Source: a virus | DNA: 64,000 bases | IMG/VR virus record: IMGVR_UViG_3300027816_000056 | Strand: one strand, 5' to 3' | Shown: in pieces, positions 4,737 through 64,000 of the stretch | Layout: every line of letters begins with the position of its first letter | Numbering within the stretch: the stretch's first letter is position 1 | The notes under the pieces: generated by a model | Told to the model about the DNA's origin: nothing | The model's database searches: none | What the model saw: only the letters and a program-made list of their open reading frames with translations | Position numbers and translations under genes: made by a program

Positions 4737-5114
4737 TTAATTTACATCAAAATATTTATTAAGTCCTTGACCGATACTTTCATATGCCAATGCCATTCTG
4801 TGTTGTGCTTCATTCACTTCGCGAGCTGCATTTTCAAAATCTCTATAATCTTCACTTACTCGTTTAAAATATTTTTTATGTGCTTGATTAGATGCCCAAT
4901 CATCACTTTCAGTCATTATTCTTTCTGCACGTTCTACAATACGTTTAACGCGTTCAACAATTTCTTCCAAGTCACCTTTACCATAAACTGATTCTCCCAT
5001 AGCAGAAAAATTGGCAACTTCTTGTACGAATTGTTGTTTTTCTTCTCTAGACATTGGTTGTGGTTTGTCTTCTAATATTGTTTCCAATATAAACTTTAAA
5101 TTTGGCGTTTTCAT
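4737..5114 (-). CDS. Hypothetical coiled-coil protein (start MKTPNLK)
   Basis: ORF; start at 5114 avoids overlap with the protease gene; ILE leader. Confidence 0.65.
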   Translation of the reverse strand: MKTPNLKFILETILEDKPQPMSREEKQQFVQEVANFSAMGESVYGKGDLEEIVERVKRIVERAERIMTESDDWASNQAHKKYFKRVSEDYRDFENAAREVNEAQHRMALAYESIGQGLNKYFDVN

Positions 5115-5115
5115 A

Positions 5116-5742
5116 TTATATCCTACATTTTCCATCTTCACAGAGTATAGATGTAATTGCATCATGTACTCTTGCGTATTTATTTGTCGTTGTTTTATTT
5201 ACTGATTCATTCATTCGTGTTGGTCGCATAAAAGCTCCATGTGTCGATGGATTTGATACAAAGTCCCAACAAATTAATTCAAAATCTTCTTGTACTTCTA
5301 CAGTGCCTTCATTACGTAGTTCTTTTACAGATCCCAAACCACGTGATGATATTCCCAAAGTAATTCCTGCACGAAATAATTCTTTAAGGATTTTTCCCGA
5401 AGGTGTATCTAATACTTGAACCGTTCCAAGTAAATCATCACCATTCCACCATATTTTTAAAACGTTATGTGATACATTGTTCAAGTTAACTACAGATGAT
5501 TCTGGATGATCTAACTCGCCTAATGCTCTATGCTGATCAATATATTCACGCTGATAACGTTGACATTCTCTTTGCAATATATGTTTAGGATATACTCGTC
5601 CGTTTTGGTTTTTAGCTCCTGCTCTTTGTAAAACTCCTTGCACTACAAAACCACCCGGTATTCCATATGCAGAACCATTTGATTCCGTTAAAGAACCAAC
5701 AGGTCGAAATGGCATATATTCTACTATAAGTTGTTTTGACAT
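5116..5742 (-). CDS. Prohead protease (T4 gp21-like)
   Basis: NQNGRVYP, ALGELDHP, DTPSGKI, GISSRGLGS, DFVSNPS. Confidence 0.95.
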   Translation of the reverse strand: MSKQLIVEYMPFRPVGSLTESNGSAYGIPGGFVVQGVLQRAGAKNQNGRVYPKHILQRECQRYQREYIDQHRALGELDHPESSVVNLNNVSHNVLKIWWNGDDLLGTVQVLDTPSGKILKELFRAGITLGISSRGLGSVKELRNEGTVEVQEDFELICWDFVSNPSTHGAFMRPTRMNESVNKTTTNKYARVHDAITSILCEDGKCRI

Positions 5743-56401: not shown

Positions 56402-56454
56402 ATACAAATAAATATTGTTTCCGCATAAATGCTGGAAACGAGACGGCCGGTACT

Positions 56455-56472
56455 TTACTCGAGCTCGAGTAA
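56455..56472. repeat. Perfect 18 bp palindrome TTACTCGAGCTCGAGTAA
   Basis: Read directly from the sequence. Confidence 0.85.
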
Positions 56473-56604
56473 TTGATAGGGTGATAGATGCGATTATATT
56501 ATATAGGGAGGATCTTGGGATCTTGGTTGGCTATATGCACCGCATATCCTAATAAAGAGCACCTATATAGCAAAAATCTTACCCGTGCTAGAAAAACATA
56601 TATA

Positions 56605-56750
56605 ACCTCCCTCATCAATCAGGGGGTCGTTACCCCCTTAACGAAACCCTCCCCCACCCCCCCTAAACAAGGGGGTCTATAGGGGTCAAATAAGGGGGGC
56701 TATAGGGGTAGTTGTATAGGGGGGCTACCCACCCCCCATCGAACCCCATC
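56605..56750. other. G-tract/C-tract non-coding element
   Basis: Five G4-G6 runs (56671-56724) flanked by multiple C runs; TATAGGGG occurs three times. Confidence 0.8.
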
Positions 56751-56776
56751 GGTCTATAATCTATATTGCATTCTGC

Positions 56777-57255: not shown

Positions 57256-57357
57256 ATCTCTATCTTTTTAATTATAAAATAAAGATACCGATAATATCAA
57301 TGCGAGTCAACCTTTTTGCAAACTTTTTTCGAACTTTTTTTGACGTGCTTTTATATA

Positions 57358-57416
57358 GTCCACCAGGGCCGACATTTTAGCGTCAACCCCAGTTTCCTAT
57401 TTGAGAGATATGATTT
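57358..57416 (-). promoter_or_regulatory. 3'-UTR module A: CATATCTCTCAA plus hairpin
   Basis: Directly after the AAA ATPase stop; stem GGGGTTGACG/TGTCGGCCCT. Confidence 0.7.
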
Positions 57417-58358
57417 CTATTCTACCGAGATGATTTGTTCTGCTACCATCTCCTCAGGATTGTCAAAGCCCATTGCACATATCCTTGCTGCTTTGATGAA
57501 GCTTCTGAGATTAACTTCAATGCCGGCATACTTTGCATCCAGGCTCTTCATAATCTCCAATGCCTGCTGCTTCGCTGCCAAAGGAATGCTACGCTCCATG
57601 CTCTCCATCAATTGCTCCATGCGCTGGAACATTTGGGTGGTGTTCATTGAGATGTCTGCTACAAAGCTACGGCTTCGGATTGCTTCATCTAATCGGCTTT
57701 GACTGATGTTGCTAATGAATATGATGCGACCTGTAAACTCAAAGTGAGCTGGTACCGGGTTGCCCCACTCGTCTTTAAGAGGCTTGCTTGAGATATAAGA
57801 TATCTTGCGTGTGTCATAGCTATCCAGAGCCGCTTTGAGGATGTTCACTGCATCATCGTCTTTGAATACAGAGTCACAGTCATCCAACACAACTATCTTG
57901 TCGGAGTTCTGATATAGCGTGATAAACAATCCGGCTGCGGTAGCACGACCTTTAAAGTGAACAAAGTCTGAGGACTCCTTCAAGCCCATTTGTCTGAGCG
58001 TGTCTTTTACTAGGTGAGTCTTGCCGACACCTGCCATACCGGTAAGCACTAAGCTAGGTTGAATGCCTCGCCCTACCATTTTAGTCAGACGCTCCAAGTT
58101 AGAAAACATCACAGCTGGGTCACGCTTCTCAATCACATTGAGGAAAGACATCTTAGCGGGTGCTGTAGCCTTTGTGGACTTAGGTGCATCAATTCTTGTA
58201 ACACGACCGTTGGGTGCTACTAACAATTGCTGCTGATTCTTCTCAGCATTCAATAGCTGGATGTGTCGGATTGAATCCTTAGGAGCAAACTCTCCTGTTG
58301 CTACACACTTTGCCATTAACTTGCCTTTTACTCTTACTGCTTCAAATACTCTCATCAT
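57417..58358 (-). CDS. AAA+ ATPase
   Basis: Walker A GMAGVGKT, Walker B VVLDD, IIFISN, AIRSR arginine finger. Confidence 0.88.
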   Translation of the reverse strand: MMRVFEAVRVKGKLMAKCVATGEFAPKDSIRHIQLLNAEKNQQQLLVAPNGRVTRIDAPKSTKATAPAKMSFLNVIEKRDPAVMFSNLERLTKMVGRGIQPSLVLTGMAGVGKTHLVKDTLRQMGLKESSDFVHFKGRATAAGLFITLYQNSDKIVVLDDCDSVFKDDDAVNILKAALDSYDTRKISYISSKPLKDEWGNPVPAHFEFTGRIIFISNISQSRLDEAIRSRSFVADISMNTTQMFQRMEQLMESMERSIPLAAKQQALEIMKSLDAKYAGIEVNLRSFIKAARICAMGFDNPEEMVAEQIISVE

Positions 58359-58440
58359 ATCTCTTATTTTTTTAATTTATATAAATTTAATGAATTTATC
58401 AATGCGATCCTAATCTTTTGCAAACTTTTTTTAAACTTTT

Positions 58441-58647
58441 TTATAGGCCGGAAAACTCCCCGTCGACGAACAATAAAGCTTCTCCCGGCTCTAATCCAGC
58501 AACTGCGAGGTTGAGGTATCCGTCATTAGGATCCGAGATGTTGTCCATATCGAGGATAGCAAAGTCGACTCCTTGCTGTTCCAATATTGTTATAAACCCT
58601 TTTGCCCGGAAGGCTTCTGCTGTTGCGATGATGTCTTGTCTTGTCAT
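58441..58647 (-). CDS. Early hypothetical protein
   Basis: AGAGATATG leader. Confidence 0.7.
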   Translation of the reverse strand: MTRQDIIATAEAFRAKGFITILEQQGVDFAILDMDNISDPNDGYLNLAVAGLEPGEALLFVDGEFSGL

Positions 58648-58666
58648 ATCTCTGATTGTTTCTCAC

Positions 58667-58718
58667 GTCCTTAAGGGCCGACATTTCTGCCGACCCTGGA
58701 CTATGTTGAGAGATATGT
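58667..58718 (-). promoter_or_regulatory. 3'-UTR module B: CATATCTCTCAA plus GAAA-tetraloop hairpin
   Basis: AGGGTCGGCA-GAAA-TGTCGGCCCT; homologous to module A. Confidence 0.72.
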
Positions 58719-59171
58719 TTACTCTGCTAGTGTCGCCTCATAGGCTGTGTCATGCGGATTGTCTCCTCGCTCCAACTCTACTACATCTGTCAAGATGCCT
58801 TCTTCCGCTGCTTCTTGTTGAGCCTGAATGAATCCATCTTCTTCCTCAACAACAAACTCATCAAGTGCACTCGTCACATGCTCCATAATAGCTCTAGTGT
58901 CAACATCAACTCTGTCTAGGCGGATTGTGTTATTGTAATCCAATTCAAATTCGGCGCTGGCGGTGTCAACAAAATCATCAGAGTTGTAATCTAAGCATCG
59001 CTCAATTTTATCTGCAATTTCCTCTGCCAACTCTTGCGTTATGCCCAACTTCGTTTCGACAACAATTTCAGGCTCCAATTGCTGGATAAGTGCAATTACA
59101 TTGTCGATTGATACTACTGAGGTTAGCGCCTTTACTCCCTCTAACTGTGCAATTAAATTTTCTTTTTTCAT
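58719..59171 (-). CDS. Early acidic hypothetical protein
   Basis: Very D/E-rich; follows a promoter repeat. Confidence 0.75.
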   Translation of the reverse strand: MKKENLIAQLEGVKALTSVVSIDNVIALIQQLEPEIVVETKLGITQELAEEIADKIERCLDYNSDDFVDTASAEFELDYNNTIRLDRVDVDTRAIMEHVTSALDEFVVEEEDGFIQAQQEAAEEGILTDVVELERGDNPHDTAYEATLAE

Positions 59172-59255
59172 CTCTCTTATTTTTTAATTATACTATAAAT
59201 TTAATAAATTAATCAATGCGTGTCAAGCATTTTGCAAACTTTTTTTAAACTTTTT

Positions 59256-59420
59256 TTATCCGAAGAATCCTCCGGCGGATAGGATCCAAATGAAGATTGC
59301 TGCATCTATCAACTTATAGAAGATGTTGTGTTCTCCGCTTTTAGGGCGTCCATGGAAGTGTGCTGTGATCAACAATTGAAGTCCTATTAGAACTAGTAAA
59401 ATGATTTGTGGTGCTCCCAT
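59256..59420 (-). CDS. Small 2-TM membrane protein (54 aa)
   Basis: MGAPQIILLVLIGLQLLITAHFHGRPKSGEHNIFYKLIDAAIFIWILSAGGFFG. Confidence 0.65.
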   Translation of the reverse strand: MGAPQIILLVLIGLQLLITAHFHGRPKSGEHNIFYKLIDAAIFIWILSAGGFFG

Positions 59421-59428
59421 CGTGTTAA

Positions 59429-59695
59429 TTAATTAAGGTTAATACTGTTATTGATTGCTTCGCGGCTCAAATCCATCGCCGTAGTCTTGCTTGTCTTTGC
59501 CTCAGCAAACTTTGCCAATACCGCAGCCATCTCCATTACTTCTCCGCGGGATACGGCTTTCATCAACATCGGTATGATTAGGCTCAATGCTGCGAAATCT
59601 TCGTCTCCGGTTATGATTGCTAGGTTCAATGCACTCTCTGCGGATTCATTCATTTGAGCTCCTAGCTCCTGGATCATTCTTCTTAGTTCTTCCAT
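59429..59695 (-). CDS. Early hypothetical protein
   Basis: AAGAGAGAGATG leader. Confidence 0.7.
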   Translation of the reverse strand: MEELRRMIQELGAQMNESAESALNLAIITGDEDFAALSLIIPMLMKAVSRGEVMEMAAVLAKFAEAKTSKTTAMDLSREAINNSINLN

Positions 59696-59713
59696 CTCTC
59701 TCTTTTTTAGTTA

Positions 59714-59830
59714 TTAATTTAATGATACTGTGTTAACAAACAATACACCGGCTAAATGCTGCTGTAAACGCTTTCTTTCGATTTGCTCTACCTGGAGCTT
59801 TGCTGTGAGTCTTTTAAATGGCTTTTTCAT
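59714..59830 (-). CDS. Small early protein (38 aa)
   Basis: MKKPFKRLTAKLQVEQIERKRLQQHLAGVLFVNTVSLN, immediately after a promoter repeat. Confidence 0.55.
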   Translation of the reverse strand: MKKPFKRLTAKLQVEQIERKRLQQHLAGVLFVNTVSLN

Positions 59831-59908
59831 ATCTCTTAATTTTATAATATAAAGATAAGGATAATATCAATGCGTGTCAAGCATTTTCCGGAAAAAGTTT
59901 CAGAAAAG

Positions 59909-60649
59909 TTACAGGTATTGTTCTAGCAATTGGATTCCTGGTAGTTTAGCCAATGCCAACTCGGCACCACGTACCAGCTGTCTTGCGCGCTCATTGGTTA
60001 CTCCCATCTCCTCAGCAATCTGATCCATGCACTGTGGATACTCCCTGCCAATGCCATAAAAGCGTGTAATAGCTTCGGCCTGCTTCGGCTTGAGTTGGTT
60101 CAATGCTCTTTGTAGGTCATACTGGAGATCTGCTGTGTCACGTGCTGATTTGGTGCTGTCTGCTGCCAAATAACGATCCGCATAGGTTTCTTTGTTCTCG
60201 TCATCACCTACCGGAGCATGGATGCTTTTAACGTATTGCTCTTCGGTTGCTGTCTTGTGGCTAGGGATCCTAACAACTCTGGAAAGGTCATTCAATGCCT
60301 TTTGCAACTCAGCACGGATATACCATACCGCAAAGGTAATGAACTTGACACCTTTATCCGGATTGAAACGCTCTGCGGCTTCGAACAATCCAATATTACC
60401 AAAGGCAATAAGATCCTCCAAAGGCAATCCCATTCCCTGATACTGCTTGGCTACTTGCACCACAAAGCGAAGGTTGGCTTCTACCAAAGCATTAACAGCC
60501 TTTCGGTCTCCTGCTGCCGCTGCCGCAGCTACTGCCTTCTCTTGTTCTCGGGTGAATGCGGCAGGCTTCTTAATCTCCTGCATATAGCGTAATGTGCTTG
60601 CTACATCTGTTACTATTGCTCCTGTGCTTACGTGAATCTTCTTTCTCAT
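59909..60649 (-). CDS. Sigma-70 family RNA polymerase sigma factor (RpoD/RpoS-like, regions 1.2-2-4)
   Basis: LVEANLRFVVQVAKQYQ, DLIAFGNIGL, KFITFAVWYIR, VRIP, IAEEMGVTNERARQL; likely start MRKKIH. Confidence 0.93.
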   Translation of the reverse strand: MRKKIHVSTGAIVTDVASTLRYMQEIKKPAAFTREQEKAVAAAAAAGDRKAVNALVEANLRFVVQVAKQYQGMGLPLEDLIAFGNIGLFEAAERFNPDKGVKFITFAVWYIRAELQKALNDLSRVVRIPSHKTATEEQYVKSIHAPVGDDENKETYADRYLAADSTKSARDTADLQYDLQRALNQLKPKQAEAITRFYGIGREYPQCMDQIAEEMGVTNERARQLVRGAELALAKLPGIQLLEQYL

Positions 60650-60650
60650 C

Positions 60651-60752
60651 TTATTTTTGTAACTCGTTAACTGATTGGACAATTATTTTAACGCAACTGG
60701 CGATCATCAATACTAGGACCGCCATTGCCAATGTGCATGCTACTACTTTCAT
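60651..60752 (-). CDS. Small hydrophobic protein (33 aa)
   Basis: MKVVACTLAMAVLVLMIASCVKIIVQSVNELQK; ATGA overlap with upstream gene. Confidence 0.45.
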   Translation of the reverse strand: MKVVACTLAMAVLVLMIASCVKIIVQSVNELQK

Positions 60753-60946
60753 CTTCCTGTGGTTAAGAATAAAAATGATACTCTTACCGGCTCTGCCTGC
60801 TTAGCTCGGTACTCTGCATTCTTGCGTCCCTGCGCTAATGCCTGGTCTACCGTTTTGGTATTCCCTCCTGTCTTTGCATCTCGGGTGAACTGACCCAATA
60901 CTGCTGCTTGTCTTTCGAATCCTGAATTTTTTGCTTTCTTTGCCAT
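60749..60946 (-). CDS. Early hypothetical protein
   Basis: Follows a promoter repeat. Confidence 0.7.
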   Translation of the reverse strand: MAKKAKNSGFERQAAVLGQFTRDAKTGGNTKTVDQALAQGRKNAEYRAKQAEPVRVSFLFLTTGR

Positions 60947-61028
60947 ATCTCTTATTTTTTTATATACTTAAATTTAATGAATTAATCAATGCGTGTCAAC
61001 CTTTTTCCAAGAAAAGTTTAAACTTTTT

Positions 61029-61217
61029 TTATGGAACGTCCTCCGTGTCATATAAATCTAGTTCCGGTGGAACACCTTCATCTTCCCGGGTAATGCAATC
61101 TACATATCCTTTGCCTTCAGCTACCATTAACCATGCCTCTTCTTCAGTCTCAGCTTCGACTTCATAACTCTGAATCAACGTTGCCGGGATCCTTTCTTCA
61201 AACTTAAACTTCTTCAT
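61029..61217 (-). CDS. Early acidic hypothetical protein
   Basis: YEVEAETEEEA motif common in small phage proteins. Confidence 0.7.
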   Translation of the reverse strand: MKKFKFEERIPATLIQSYEVEAETEEEAWLMVAEGKGYVDCITREDEGVPPELDLYDTEDVP

Positions 61218-61220
61218 ATC

Positions 61221-61439
61221 CTACTTATTAAATGGTTGTACAACTCCGCACTTTAAAAGTGCCTCAATCAAATCCGGGCGAGGCACAAAGCCATTAGGCA
61301 TAAATTGATCCAGGTAAGTGTCTGTGCATGGCTCTGTTGCATCAAATTCCTCATTGAACTCAGCTTCCAAAAGTCCTTCCAAAAACATGGCAATGTCTGC
61401 TGCCATTAAGATGTCAACTTTAAATTCTCTTTCTCTCAT
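61221..61439 (-). CDS. Early hypothetical protein
   Basis: Follows a promoter repeat. Confidence 0.7.
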   Translation of the reverse strand: MREREFKVDILMAADIAMFLEGLLEAEFNEEFDATEPCTDTYLDQFMPNGFVPRPDLIEALLKCGVVQPFNK

Positions 61440-61500
61440 TTTTCTCTCTTTTTAAATTAATACTTAAATATAAGGAATAAATCAATGCGATCCTAATCTT

Positions 61501-61746
61501 TTAGCAACTTTTTTCAGACTTTTTATCTAAAGCGTCTAACTCATCAACTTTGCGATCCAATGCTGCTGCATACTTACGATCCGCTTCCTCATTCGGAATG
61601 AATCCAATATTGTAATCTGAGTTTGGATTGATAATGTAACGGCCACCCCGGTCTGCTTGTACAACAACATGCTGAGGATCAAATATCTCAATCATTGATC
61701 CAAATTCTACCTTCTTTGTAATTGTGTTTGTGAATTTTACTCTCAT
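61501..61746 (-). CDS. Early hypothetical protein
   Basis: Follows a promoter repeat; C-terminus runs into the next repeat. Confidence 0.7.
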   Translation of the reverse strand: MRVKFTNTITKKVEFGSMIEIFDPQHVVVQADRGGRYIINPNSDYNIGFIPNEEADRKYAAALDRKVDELDALDKKSEKSC

Positions 61747-61804
61747 ATCTCTCTTTTTAAATTAATACTTAAATATAATGATTATTTCAATGCGATCCTA
61801 GCAT

Positions 61805-61975
61805 TTAGGCAACTTTTTTTACAACAAAAGAATATTTGTAATAGTTACGTTCCCCCGGCGTTAAATGTGCCCGGCGACTTTTAGCATAAGCTTTTGCTTC
61901 TTCGTGATTTGCAAATTCTTTAACTACCCGGCCGGATTCTCCTATTCGGCCTCCTTTTTGAATTACTTGTGTCAT
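61805..61975 (-). CDS. Small early protein (56 aa)
   Basis: MTQVIQKGGRIGESGRVVKEFANHEEAKAYAKSRRAHLTPGERNYYKYSFVVKKVA after a promoter repeat. Confidence 0.65.
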   Translation of the reverse strand: MTQVIQKGGRIGESGRVVKEFANHEEAKAYAKSRRAHLTPGERNYYKYSFVVKKVA

Positions 61976-62028
61976 TTTTCTCTCTTTTTAAATTAATACT
62001 TAAATATACCGATTATTTCAATGCGATC

Positions 62029-62223
62029 CTAATTTTTAGGCAACTTTTTTTCTAAATTTTTTCTCTTTGCTTTTAGTCGCTTTATTTCTAACCGGCGGAG
62101 ATATGGTCCGTGATTATACGTGCTACCCGCCCAAGCCATTGTCCAAACTGTCTTGTCAGTTTTCAAAAACTCAATGCGGTTGTCAATTTTTACAATCAGA
62201 TTCTGGATTTCTTGCTGTGTCAT
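62029..62223 (-). CDS. Early hypothetical protein (start MTQQEIQ)
   Basis: GAGATATATG leader at 62223. Confidence 0.65.
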   Translation of the reverse strand: MTQQEIQNLIVKIDNRIEFLKTDKTVWTMAWAGSTYNHGPYLRRLEIKRLKAKRKNLEKKLPKN

Positions 62224-62233
62224 ATATCTCAAT

Positions 62234-62386
62234 TTACCAATTATACCATCTAAAACTTTCACTGCCACATTTGCATTTAAATGCTCTTGCCCATTTGCCT
62301 AAACTAAAATTATAAACTCGCTGGGTTACTTTGCCGCAATTATAACATTGGCACTTTTTGATTTCGGTTTGATGATTTCTACTCAT
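62234..62386 (-). CDS. Small zinc-ribbon early protein (50 aa)
   Basis: MSRNHQTEIKKCQCYNCGKV...FKCKCGSESFRWYNW after a promoter repeat. Confidence 0.65.
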   Translation of the reverse strand: MSRNHQTEIKKCQCYNCGKVTQRVYNFSLGKWARAFKCKCGSESFRWYNW

Positions 62387-62478
62387 ATCTCTCTTTTAAT
62401 TTTATAATATAAAGATAAGCATTTTTAGAATGCGTGTCAAGCATTTTCTAAAAAAAGTTGTAAAAAAGTTTGCTGGCC

Positions 62479-62835
62479 CTAAAAGCCAACAAACCCTTGT
62501 TTCAAATCTAATGCTAAATCCTCAGCTATATCCTTAAGCCGGTAATAAGGAGCATCTTCTATTTCTTCCTCAACTCGTCTAGCAACTTCTGCTACGTCAA
62601 ACCCCGATCCAAAACCATGGCATAATACAGCCTTCTGGATTTTTATCATTGCCGGAGTAGCTGCATATTCCCAATCTGCATCGCCATCAACATCACTCGC
62701 ATCGATCCCATTGGTCCACATTTCAAATACTTTAACTCTAACGGCTTCTGCAACTCGATCATTGTGGTCATACATTGCCTTGCTCCAAGGCTTAACAATT
62801 TCAATTCCGTACTCAATTTTTGCTGCTTTTTTCAT
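62479..62835 (-). CDS. Early hypothetical protein
   Basis: Follows a promoter repeat. Confidence 0.72.
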   Translation of the reverse strand: MKKAAKIEYGIEIVKPWSKAMYDHNDRVAEAVRVKVFEMWTNGIDASDVDGDADWEYAATPAMIKIQKAVLCHGFGSGFDVAEVARRVEEEIEDAPYYRLKDIAEDLALDLKQGFVGF

Positions 62836-62918
62836 ATATCTCTCTTTTTAATTTATATAAAGATAAGGAAAAGATCGATGCGAGTCAACCTTTTCCTAAA
62901 CTTTTTTTAAACTTTTTT

Positions 62919-63149
62919 TTATATTCGATTAATATCAATAATATCAATATCTTTTATTACTGCTAATAACGCGCCGCTTGAACTACGTAATCCGCTATCA
63001 AATTTCGTCCAGCCCTTATCGCCTCTCGTTACACTGTACTCTTTTAATTTAAGTACTTTTGTTACAAGACCGTGATAAGGACATGTATACGTAACATTGT
63101 ACAATTTTCCGCATGCTAACCTAGCTCCTAATAATTCTTTTTTCTTCAT
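62919..63149 (-). CDS. Early hypothetical protein
   Basis: Follows a promoter repeat. Confidence 0.68.
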   Translation of the reverse strand: MKKKELLGARLACGKLYNVTYTCPYHGLVTKVLKLKEYSVTRGDKGWTKFDSGLRSSSGALLAVIKDIDIIDINRI

Positions 63150-63239
63150 ATCTCTTATTTTTTAATTTATATAAAGATAAGCAAAATAATAATGCGATCC
63201 TAATTTTTTAGCAACTTTTTTTAAACTTTTTTTTTACAG

Positions 63240-63580
63240 TAAAAAAGGACCCGGGAATAAGAGAGAGAAACCCGAGTCCTAATATTACACAGCCGCAACC
63301 AAACCAACGCTTTACAGAAAGATGGTTTAGCCTGAAACGCGTTGCGGCTGCCTTACCTAACCTGAGAGATATGTTGTAAGCCTTGCACTTACTCGGGAGC
63401 ATCTAACCCTCCACTTGATTTTTAAAAGCAAGAGCCGGAGGTGTTAGCAAGTCGCGCTCCGAAGTGCCCTAAATGCTTGTGGTTACCGGCTCTAAGATCT
63501 AAATATTATCGTATCGATCCTTTTGGTCGCCTCTCTTACGGCATTTGGTTGGATCAACCTTCCTTCTTATTTACACTTAT
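63240..63580 (-). ncRNA. Candidate structured ncRNA (~340 nt) with loops antisense to early-gene leaders
   Basis: Own promoter (TTTGGTTGGAT..CATATTATA, 63578-63615); stems GATCC/GGATC, AGAGCCGG/CCGGCTCT, CTTAC/GTAAG, CAGCCGCAAC/GTTGCGGCTG; terminator GGACTCGGG..CCCGGGTCC-T6; no convincing ORF. Confidence 0.7.
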
Positions 63581-63614
63581 ATAATATGAAAACTATTTCT
63601 AGAATCCAACCAAA

Positions 63615-63985
63615 TCTAAAAATCAATCTAAAAATAACGCATATTGGACTAAAAATAGCCGGGGAGATACCGGTATCCATCTAGAAATAGCGTCTCTGTA
63701 TAGCTAGGTCAGCAAATGTAACGTGTGTATAGTGCAGGTTCTTCTAAAAATAGACTGGCTTTGGACTAAAAATAAAACCCGGGATTCATCTAAAAATAAG
63801 GTGATTTCGTCTAAAAATAGCCAGGGAGGGGAATATTCATCTAAAAATAGAACCACTTCGTCTAAAAATAAGTACTCTGTATAGCTAGTGATCTGAACCA
63901 AAACCGCACTACGCACGCATACGCACTACATGATGCGTACGCTCAATAGCTAGTGATCTGAACAAAGCATCTAAAAATAACCCGG
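63615..63985. repeat. Iteron-like array of CTAAAAATA(G/A)
   Basis: Copies at 63616, 63628, 63649, 63681 (variant), 63744, 63766, 63790, 63811, 63841, 63862, 63971; plus ATAGCTAG(TGATCTGAAC) three times. Confidence 0.85.
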
Positions 63986-64000
63986 GGAGGTGAGGCCATG

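Follow-up and report, generated by a model that had tools for sequence, protein, structure and literature searches.

A 12-nucleotide motif, CATATCTCTCAA, directly follows the stop codons of two early phage genes and most likely masks start codons, controlling early protein synthesis. We found this anti-leader in two modules on the minus strand of a 64,000-nucleotide stretch of viral DNA (the window), and in each module it is followed by a hairpin. Our preferred reading is that the modules are cis-acting anti-start-codon elements on early mRNAs, which we regard as an even bet. The core function of the motif appears to be pairing with an early start region at the RNA level. We favor pairing because the complementarity is exact over 10 nt, the copies are biased in strand and position, some variants shift register, and some lineages lack leader and anti-leader alike. 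Our evidence comes from the layout of the sequence and its conservation, from strand specificity, from predicted helices, and from the partners that the motif prefers.

The window comes from a phage-like contig, and its early region lies on the minus strand from about 63200 to 56770. Near-identical promoter cassettes precede most genes in this region. The cassettes run from A-rich AAAAAGTTT repeats through TTGACAcgcattga or TAGGATCgcattga to a TTATCTTTATAT-type box, and every cassette terminates in a common leader, AAGAGA(GA)UAUG. The consensus early leader is GAGAGAUAUG. The sequence AGAGATATG has eight minus-strand copies in the window, all eight of them at gene starts between 57261 and 63155. 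The early leaders lack a Shine-Dalgarno (SD) sequence, and the cassette box is similar to the Bacteroidota -7 element. These promoters and SD-less leaders suggest that the host belongs to the Bacteroidota, and the likely host probably does not use SD sequences. In Bacteroidota, mRNA structure is a main determinant of translation initiation (PMC6847099).

The two modules lie immediately behind their genes (Table 1). In module A, the TAA stop codon of a gene for an acidic protein (58721-58719) is followed by 1 nt and then by CATATCTCTCAA (58717-58706). In module B, the TAG stop codon of an AAA ATPase gene (57419-57417) is followed by 4 nt and then by CATATCTCTCAA (57412-57401). The original prediction, made from the letters of the window, had placed the motif and a hairpin directly after both stops and had called for a comparison with shuffled sequence, and both points were borne out. 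The 10-mer CATATCTCTC is present in five copies in the window, where 0.13 are expected, and 0 of 100 shuffled sequences reached five. Three of the copies are on the transcribed minus strand, in modules A and B and at 63364-63373 within a putative ncRNA. The two plus-strand copies complement the regions where genes 61501-61746 and 62234-62386 start.

Table 1. Modules, adjoining genes, and predicted pairing partners in the window.
Feature	Position	Strand	Remarks
Acidic 150-aa protein gene	58719..59171	-	Stop abuts module A; no Pfam family
Module A anti-start 12-mer	58706..58717	-	1 nt past the acidic-protein stop; exact in 33/39 distinct A-type modules
Module A hairpin	58667..58701	-	GUCC/GGAC outer stem, 9-bp inner stem, GAAA loop
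Leader + AUG of next ORF, AGAGAUAUG	58645..58653	-	Predicted partner of the module A motif
68-aa ORF	58441..58647	-	Without its own promoter; immediately downstream of module A
AAA leader + start codon, AGAGAUAUGAU	58354..58364	-	Predicted module B partner; duplex -14.8 kcal/mol
AAA/nSTAND6-type ATPase gene, 313 aa	57417..58358	-	Pfam PF25201 + PF00004; own promoter cassette upstream
Module B anti-start 12-mer, CAUAUCUCUCAA	57401..57412	-	4 nt past the AAA stop; kept in most of ~110 loci
Module B hairpin	57362..57393	-	~13 bp, without a U-tract in this phage
Third sense-strand anti-leader	63364..63373	-	Within the putative early ncRNA; kept in contig G002 (L044)

We compared the motif with the early leaders. 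CATATCTCTCAA is complementary over 11 bp to the ATPase leader; its fit to the leader of the acidic gene itself (AAGAGAGAUG) is imperfect, at -10.7 kcal/mol. The proposal that it complements the start regions of its own mRNAs held for the ATPase and was not supported for the acidic protein. At least eight leaders in the window are complementary to the motif. The best partners belong to genes 62386 and 61746, and the consensus leader fits better than the cis partners do. The trailing AA of the motif and the AUAG that follows it are conserved, and pairing does not explain them. Read on the plus strand, the motif becomes TTGAGAGATATG, which looks like a leader with an ATG, so that the sites might be starts of plus-strand peptides; the original prediction had itself raised this objection. 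The antisense ORFs at these sites are not conserved and have lengths of 3-129 aa; the two in the window have 38 aa (module A) and 7 aa (module B). No promoter cassette points in that direction. We consider plus-strand peptides hardly credible.

We recovered relatives through the ATPase (29 viral-contig loci and 80 metagenome loci), and both modules recur in more than 100 related phage contigs. In 539 kb of these relatives, the 12-mer (≤1 mismatch) occurs in 88 distinct sense-strand contexts, 73 of which are exact. Of the 88 contexts, 82 lie 0-8 nt past a stop triplet, chiefly 1-2 or 4-5 nt, and the flanks of the 12-mer carry little information across the set. On five whole contigs the exact 10-mer clusters in early regions, the exception being one coding-region match in contig G005, and a reversed-motif control gave 0 matches on the same contigs. 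Each genome carries only two modules, plus the ncRNA. Related contigs in IMG/VR reach 158-160 kb and have direct terminal repeats, and the sequence is found mostly in freshwater metagenomes. Two metatranscriptome runs and two doubtful "RNA" runs contributed sparse short contigs, mostly from relatives, and these showed no RNA ends, no bridging pieces, and no small RNA. A blastn search against cultured phages gave no DNA match to the window, and tblastn with the ATPase and the sigma factor as queries found distant relatives only (<36% identity), so no cultured model is at hand.

Leader and anti-leader are absent together from two lineages. The early leaders of loci L121 and L028 do not contain GAGAGAU, and the anti-leader is likewise absent from both. 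Across the whole L121 locus we found no copy of the old anti-leader and no obvious replacement for it. L121 has kept its promoter cassettes, and the common leader is replaced in all of its genes by UUAAAACC(C)UAAA..AUG. In L028, a repeated CATTTCTCTAGG was considered as an alternative anti-leader and rejected, being part of that lineage's promoter cassette.

Module A is an intercistronic element, not a 3'-UTR. We folded the 96 nt from the acidic-protein stop to the next ORF and found that CAUAUCUCU (58717-58709) pairs with AGAGAUAUG (58653-58645) in a 9-bp helix. This helix covers the AUG of the 68-aa ORF, encloses the hairpin, and is present in both the minimum free energy (MFE) and centroid structures (z-score -5.5). 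All 11 other distinct modules with an adjacent ORF have this helix in their MFE structure, and the protein start of the 68-aa ORF is the same in L009 and L090. A bicistronic model of 761 nt gave pair probabilities of 0.84-0.997 for the helix with the downstream start (about 0.98-1.0 for the start codon), versus 0.0 for the acidic gene's own start. In relatives, too, that own leader is a poor match, and in the L021 group it does not contain the motif at all. We therefore rejected the original view that module A is a 3'-UTR folding back on its own 5' end; the models point to the start of the next ORF as its partner. The interval 58706-58645 contains no promoter cassette. In these models, then, a downstream start is sequestered by sequence that adjoins the upstream stop with no promoter between them, and module A looks like a case of structure-mediated translational coupling. 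Variants of the pairing are found at three loci. In L009, the motif variant CAUGUCUC faces the sole GAGACAUG leader of that locus; L118 has the CAUGUCUC variant without a matching leader, and L085 has the GAGACAUG leader opposite UAUAUCUC.

What follows an A-type module varies widely. At least 15 different genes or ORFs lie downstream of the same module, and in other lineages tRNA-like RNAs or promoter cassettes take their place. The 12-mer is almost invariant whichever of these comes next. The leaders adjoining A-type hairpins are less complementary to the motif than cassette leaders are (-9.9 vs -12.0 kcal/mol, p 1e-4). This invariance, together with the weaker adjacent leaders, suggests a constraint other than the adjacent partner. 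The tRNA-like elements have an AGTCAGG...CCTGACTA acceptor stem and lie directly after A-type modules in several relatives (L002, 3450-3575; L014, about 5010-5130; L121, about 1770-1850; and also L072, L076, L082, and L084). ARAGORN reported no tRNA in the window.

We considered whether the modules are conserved recombination boundaries of the kind represented by promoter-early stem-loop (PeSL) cassettes in T4-type phages, kept for the swapping of early genes, with the inverted repeat formed with the leader as a DNA-level feature. PeSLs are composite terminator/promoter motifs at indel sites (PMC4122927, PMC2839356), repeated stem-loop and early-promoter composites between variable early genes. 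Here too, a hairpin is followed directly by a repeated promoter cassette at B-type modules, and the genes after A-type modules are unrelated to one another. An anti-start-codon motif has not been described for PeSLs (PMC2839356, PMC4122927), and homologous exchange needs no 12-mer that exactly complements a start region. The strict post-stop position and the hairpin pairs that only G:U can make (see below) indicate function at the RNA level. As a full account of the motif, a recombination boundary is quite improbable. It is compatible with a pairing function rather than an alternative to one, and a PeSL-like boundary role may coexist with a role in cis or in trans.

Module B shows a different preference. 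In a 1032-nt model of the ATPase mRNA, partition function calculations pair 58364-58354 with 57414-57404 at P 0.89-0.999, and whole-mRNA folds give the same end-to-end helix as dominant in 18 of 19 diverse relatives. The original proposal of 5'-3' pairing in cis that hides the start codon is thus supported by the models for module B and not for module A. The module B motif also fits its own leader better than the leader of the next gene (-13.9 vs -10.4 kcal/mol), with own better in 13 of 16 lineages. Matched motif/own-leader pairs exceed permuted pairs (p ~0.001), and when the canonical cassette leaders within a locus are ranked, the own leader stands at percentile 0.25 (n=33, naive p 6e-5); other than the flank contrasts that follow, the statistics given here carry no phylogenetic correction. 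The bases that precede CAU, at the 5' flank of the motif, track codon 2 of the gene in the combinations AA/UUA, AU/AUG, UG/CAA, and GC/GUA, and helices extended by the flank reach 12 bp. Of the four phylogenetically independent contrasts, none goes against this rule; the sign test is not significant because four pairs leave it underpowered. Read-through transcripts would offer module B the leader of the following gene as a partner. We rejected this pairing, which is possible in the window: it is weak in many relatives and not significant by permutation (p 0.064).

Variation in module B follows the leader. In a clade with the leader GAGAGAUAUAUG, drift has moved the motif to different registers (CGUAUAUCUCUC, GAUAUAUCUCUC, and UAUAUAUCUCG), and most of the drifted motifs retain 9-12 bp to the leader (8-12 bp over all B variants). 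Drift in register with retained pairing is the behavior of a pairing constraint, not of a protein site. Module B is dispensable, since several relatives (L008, L011, and L012) keep the canonical leader and have no module B.

The hairpins of the two modules share an identical 3' arm, ATGTCGGCCCT (58684-58674 and 57375-57365). Their 5' arms, AGGGTCGGCA and GGGGTTGACG, differ at four positions, all of them transitions opposite U or G. As predicted, the differences leave pairing intact through G:U or A:U pairs, and they do so on the minus strand only. Hairpin pairs that work only on the sense RNA point to a function at the RNA level. The further claim that the hairpin co-varies does not hold within the window, where the changes are one-sided and not double compensatory; it does hold for the A-type hairpin across relatives, where three pairs have changes on both sides and 98.7% of cells are paired. 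A-type hairpins in relatives have the layout GUCC, 9-bp stem, GNRA loop, GGACGU, and their loop-proximal GCA-GNRA-UGU is invariant in most. In most relatives, the B-type element is a GNRA-loop hairpin with a short U-run and the next promoter cassette directly after it, and it therefore looks like a terminator. In the window and in L088, the ATPase gene is followed by an A-like hairpin without a U-run, and a simple terminator scan flagged neither hairpin of the window. The 3' end of the ATPase mRNA is uncertain because the window's B hairpin has no U-tract.

A conserved single-stranded block, a spacer of 4-10 nt, and a GNRA-loop hairpin are also the parts of a nut-like antitermination site (boxA + boxB). 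The modules might accordingly be recognition signals for a protein or an RNase, in antitermination or as processing or stability elements, with the complementarity to leaders secondary. CUCUCAA resembles boxA GCUCUUAA, and nutR is similarly located after the cro gene. The invariant loop-proximal bases of the A-type hairpin, and the conserved trailing AA and AUAG for which pairing gives no account, would fit such a signal. Set against the boxA consensus CGCUCUUA, the motif has only CUCU..AA in common, along with the GNRA loops. A perfect 10-nt complement of the regulon leader is very unlikely to arise by chance, and the B variants drift in sequence and register while holding 8-12 bp to the leader. 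The compensatory change in L009, the absence of the anti-leader from lineages that lack the leader motif, and the terminator-like character of the B hairpin itself also argue against it. We judge a protein or RNase signal improbable.

The following scheme is the cis-acting one that we prefer. A single-stranded 12-mer, 1-5 nt past the stop and followed by a stable GNRA-type hairpin, would pair with the conserved early leader and its AUG (..GAGAUAUG) and so hide the start codon. In what follows, we infer where the transcripts end, how translation is affected, and what the ribosome does. The module A motif would pair with the start of the next, promoter-less cistron. A terminating ribosome would unwind this helix because it begins 1-2 nt past the stop, which would couple translation of the small ORF to that of the acidic protein. 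The unwinding step rests on established ribosome footprint sizes. The module B motif would pair with the start of its own ATPase mRNA, closing it end to end and limiting or tuning its translation, and a ribosome that terminates 4 nt before the motif would open the helix again. Readings in cis agree best with the partner-specific signals, namely the next cistron's start for A and the mRNA's own start for B.

Action in trans is a possible but less probable reading. The 3' ends of these mRNAs, or small RNAs cut from them, would serve as seeds and pair with the leader that many early mRNAs have in common. Released after termination or processing at the hairpin, they would act alongside the ncRNA in class-wide feedback on, or shut-off of, early translation. 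We give weight to a multi-target role of this kind because the 12-mer is nearly invariant, the consensus leader fits it better than the cis partners do, and the conserved ncRNA carries an identical copy. The flanks, the hairpin type, and the downstream content all vary around the 12-mer, and the cis-adjacent leaders are weakened. The motif is unpaired in 12 of 16 B-type folds, and in most relatives a terminator-like hairpin comes immediately 3' of it, as in an sRNA; the window has the single-stranded seed and at least eight candidate target leaders, and its B hairpin lacks the U-tract. Against seeds acting in trans, the motif after the ATPase gene favors its own leader and its flank follows codon 2, a site 1-5 nt from a stop would be covered while the mRNA is translated, and each genome has only the two modules and the ncRNA. 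The ncRNA (window 63240-63615) is conserved in contig G002 (L044, 1300-1760, minus strand), where the middle has diverged and CAACAUAUCUCUCA and the terminator loop UUUCUCUCUCUUAUU are kept.

A combined scheme, which we regard as unlikely, is an RNA-only switch for the whole regulon, with GAGAGAUAUG as a common start tag on every early mRNA and the same invariant anti-tag seed on three early RNAs, the ncRNA and the two mRNAs with their 3' modules. Terminating ribosomes would cover the seeds on the mRNAs during translation and free them as translation declines, and the freed seeds would titrate all early leaders in trans, giving shut-off without a protein repressor.

We compared the modules with known systems. 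In the icaR mRNA of Staphylococcus aureus, a 3'-UTR motif is complementary to the mRNA's own initiation region and pairing blocks initiation (PMC3868564). Our models suggest the same relationship for module B, a short 3' motif complementary to the initiation region of the same mRNA; module A bears no such relationship to its own leader. The icaR target is an SD sequence, whereas the phage target is an AUG with a non-SD leader. The icaR 3'-UTR is long, whereas the phage motif lies 4-5 nt past the stop with a terminal hairpin directly after it and recurs at a second site as well as within an early-regulon ncRNA. Module A resembles structure-mediated translational coupling (reviewed in PMC12548453) and ribosome termination structures (PMC7518266), in that a downstream start is predicted to be locked in a helix with stop-adjacent sequence. 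The terminating ribosome should open this helix because one of its strands adjoins the upstream stop. The module A helix differs in having strands about 55 nt apart that enclose a conserved, covarying hairpin, and in being a portable phage cassette found before at least 15 genes in a host that probably does not use SD sequences. The hbs mRNA represents a further related mechanism (PMC5737220).

Two other comparisons concern RNA 3' ends. 3'-UTR-derived sRNAs share the terminator of their parent mRNA. In hly-prsA2, pairing occurs between the 3'-UTR of one mRNA and the 5'-UTR of another (PMC8722363). The modules resemble both in having a single-stranded seed upstream of a terminator-like hairpin and complementary to the initiation regions of other mRNAs. 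They differ in that the seed starts ≤5 nt from the stop. In hok mRNA, fold-back inhibition (fbi/tac) by pairing of the 3' end with the 5' end silences the full-length transcript. The original analogy to hok did not stand up: the phage gene encodes an AAA ATPase, there is neither a toxin nor a Sok-like antisense RNA, and activation by 3' trimming is unlikely because the anti-leader lies 5' of a stable hairpin.

To our knowledge, few bacterial mRNAs are documented to have a start codon masked by a 3' element, and the literature we searched gave no phage example. The mechanisms themselves resemble known ones (icaR, hbs, coupling helices, and ribosome termination structures). In the same literature we found no description of one anti-start motif that is reused across a phage early regulon, always abutting stops and likely in an SD-less setting. 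A widespread family of uncultured freshwater phages of about 160 kb uses one 12-nt anti-start motif repeatedly, at defined sites of the early regulon. If its function is confirmed, these phages time or couple early protein synthesis purely through RNA, and a portable "stop - anti-start - hairpin - start" cassette plugs new genes into an operon with translational control. Where SD sequences are not used, such a cassette would also be a simple means, transferable between organisms, of coupling or capping translation.

The early region has further features of its own. Rfam at gathering thresholds gave 0 matches in the window. Two classes of cassette lie upstream of a common cgcattga core (window 57270-63230, minus strand), one with TTGACA/TTGACT and the other with TAGGATC; examples are 59226-59187, 58420-58365, and 62080-62020. 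The early region encodes a sigma-70-family protein (59909-60682; Pfam Sigma70_r2 + r4), and different sigma factors may read the two classes. In some cassettes of relatives, a small conserved hairpin, AGGGAAAGGCCCU, separates the -7-like box from the leader; these cassettes lie downstream of module B in L003, L004, L013, L021, and L025 and upstream of the ATPase gene in L009. Just upstream of the ncRNA is a dense array of about 10 (C)TATTTTTAGA repeats with variable spacers (63640-64000), which might serve as an origin, mark a terminal region, or bind protein. At its other end, the early region is closed by a non-coding block rich in G/C runs, with GGGGG and CCCCCCTATA motifs (56450-56770), and a comparable closing block is present in a distant relative (L121, 5470-5620).
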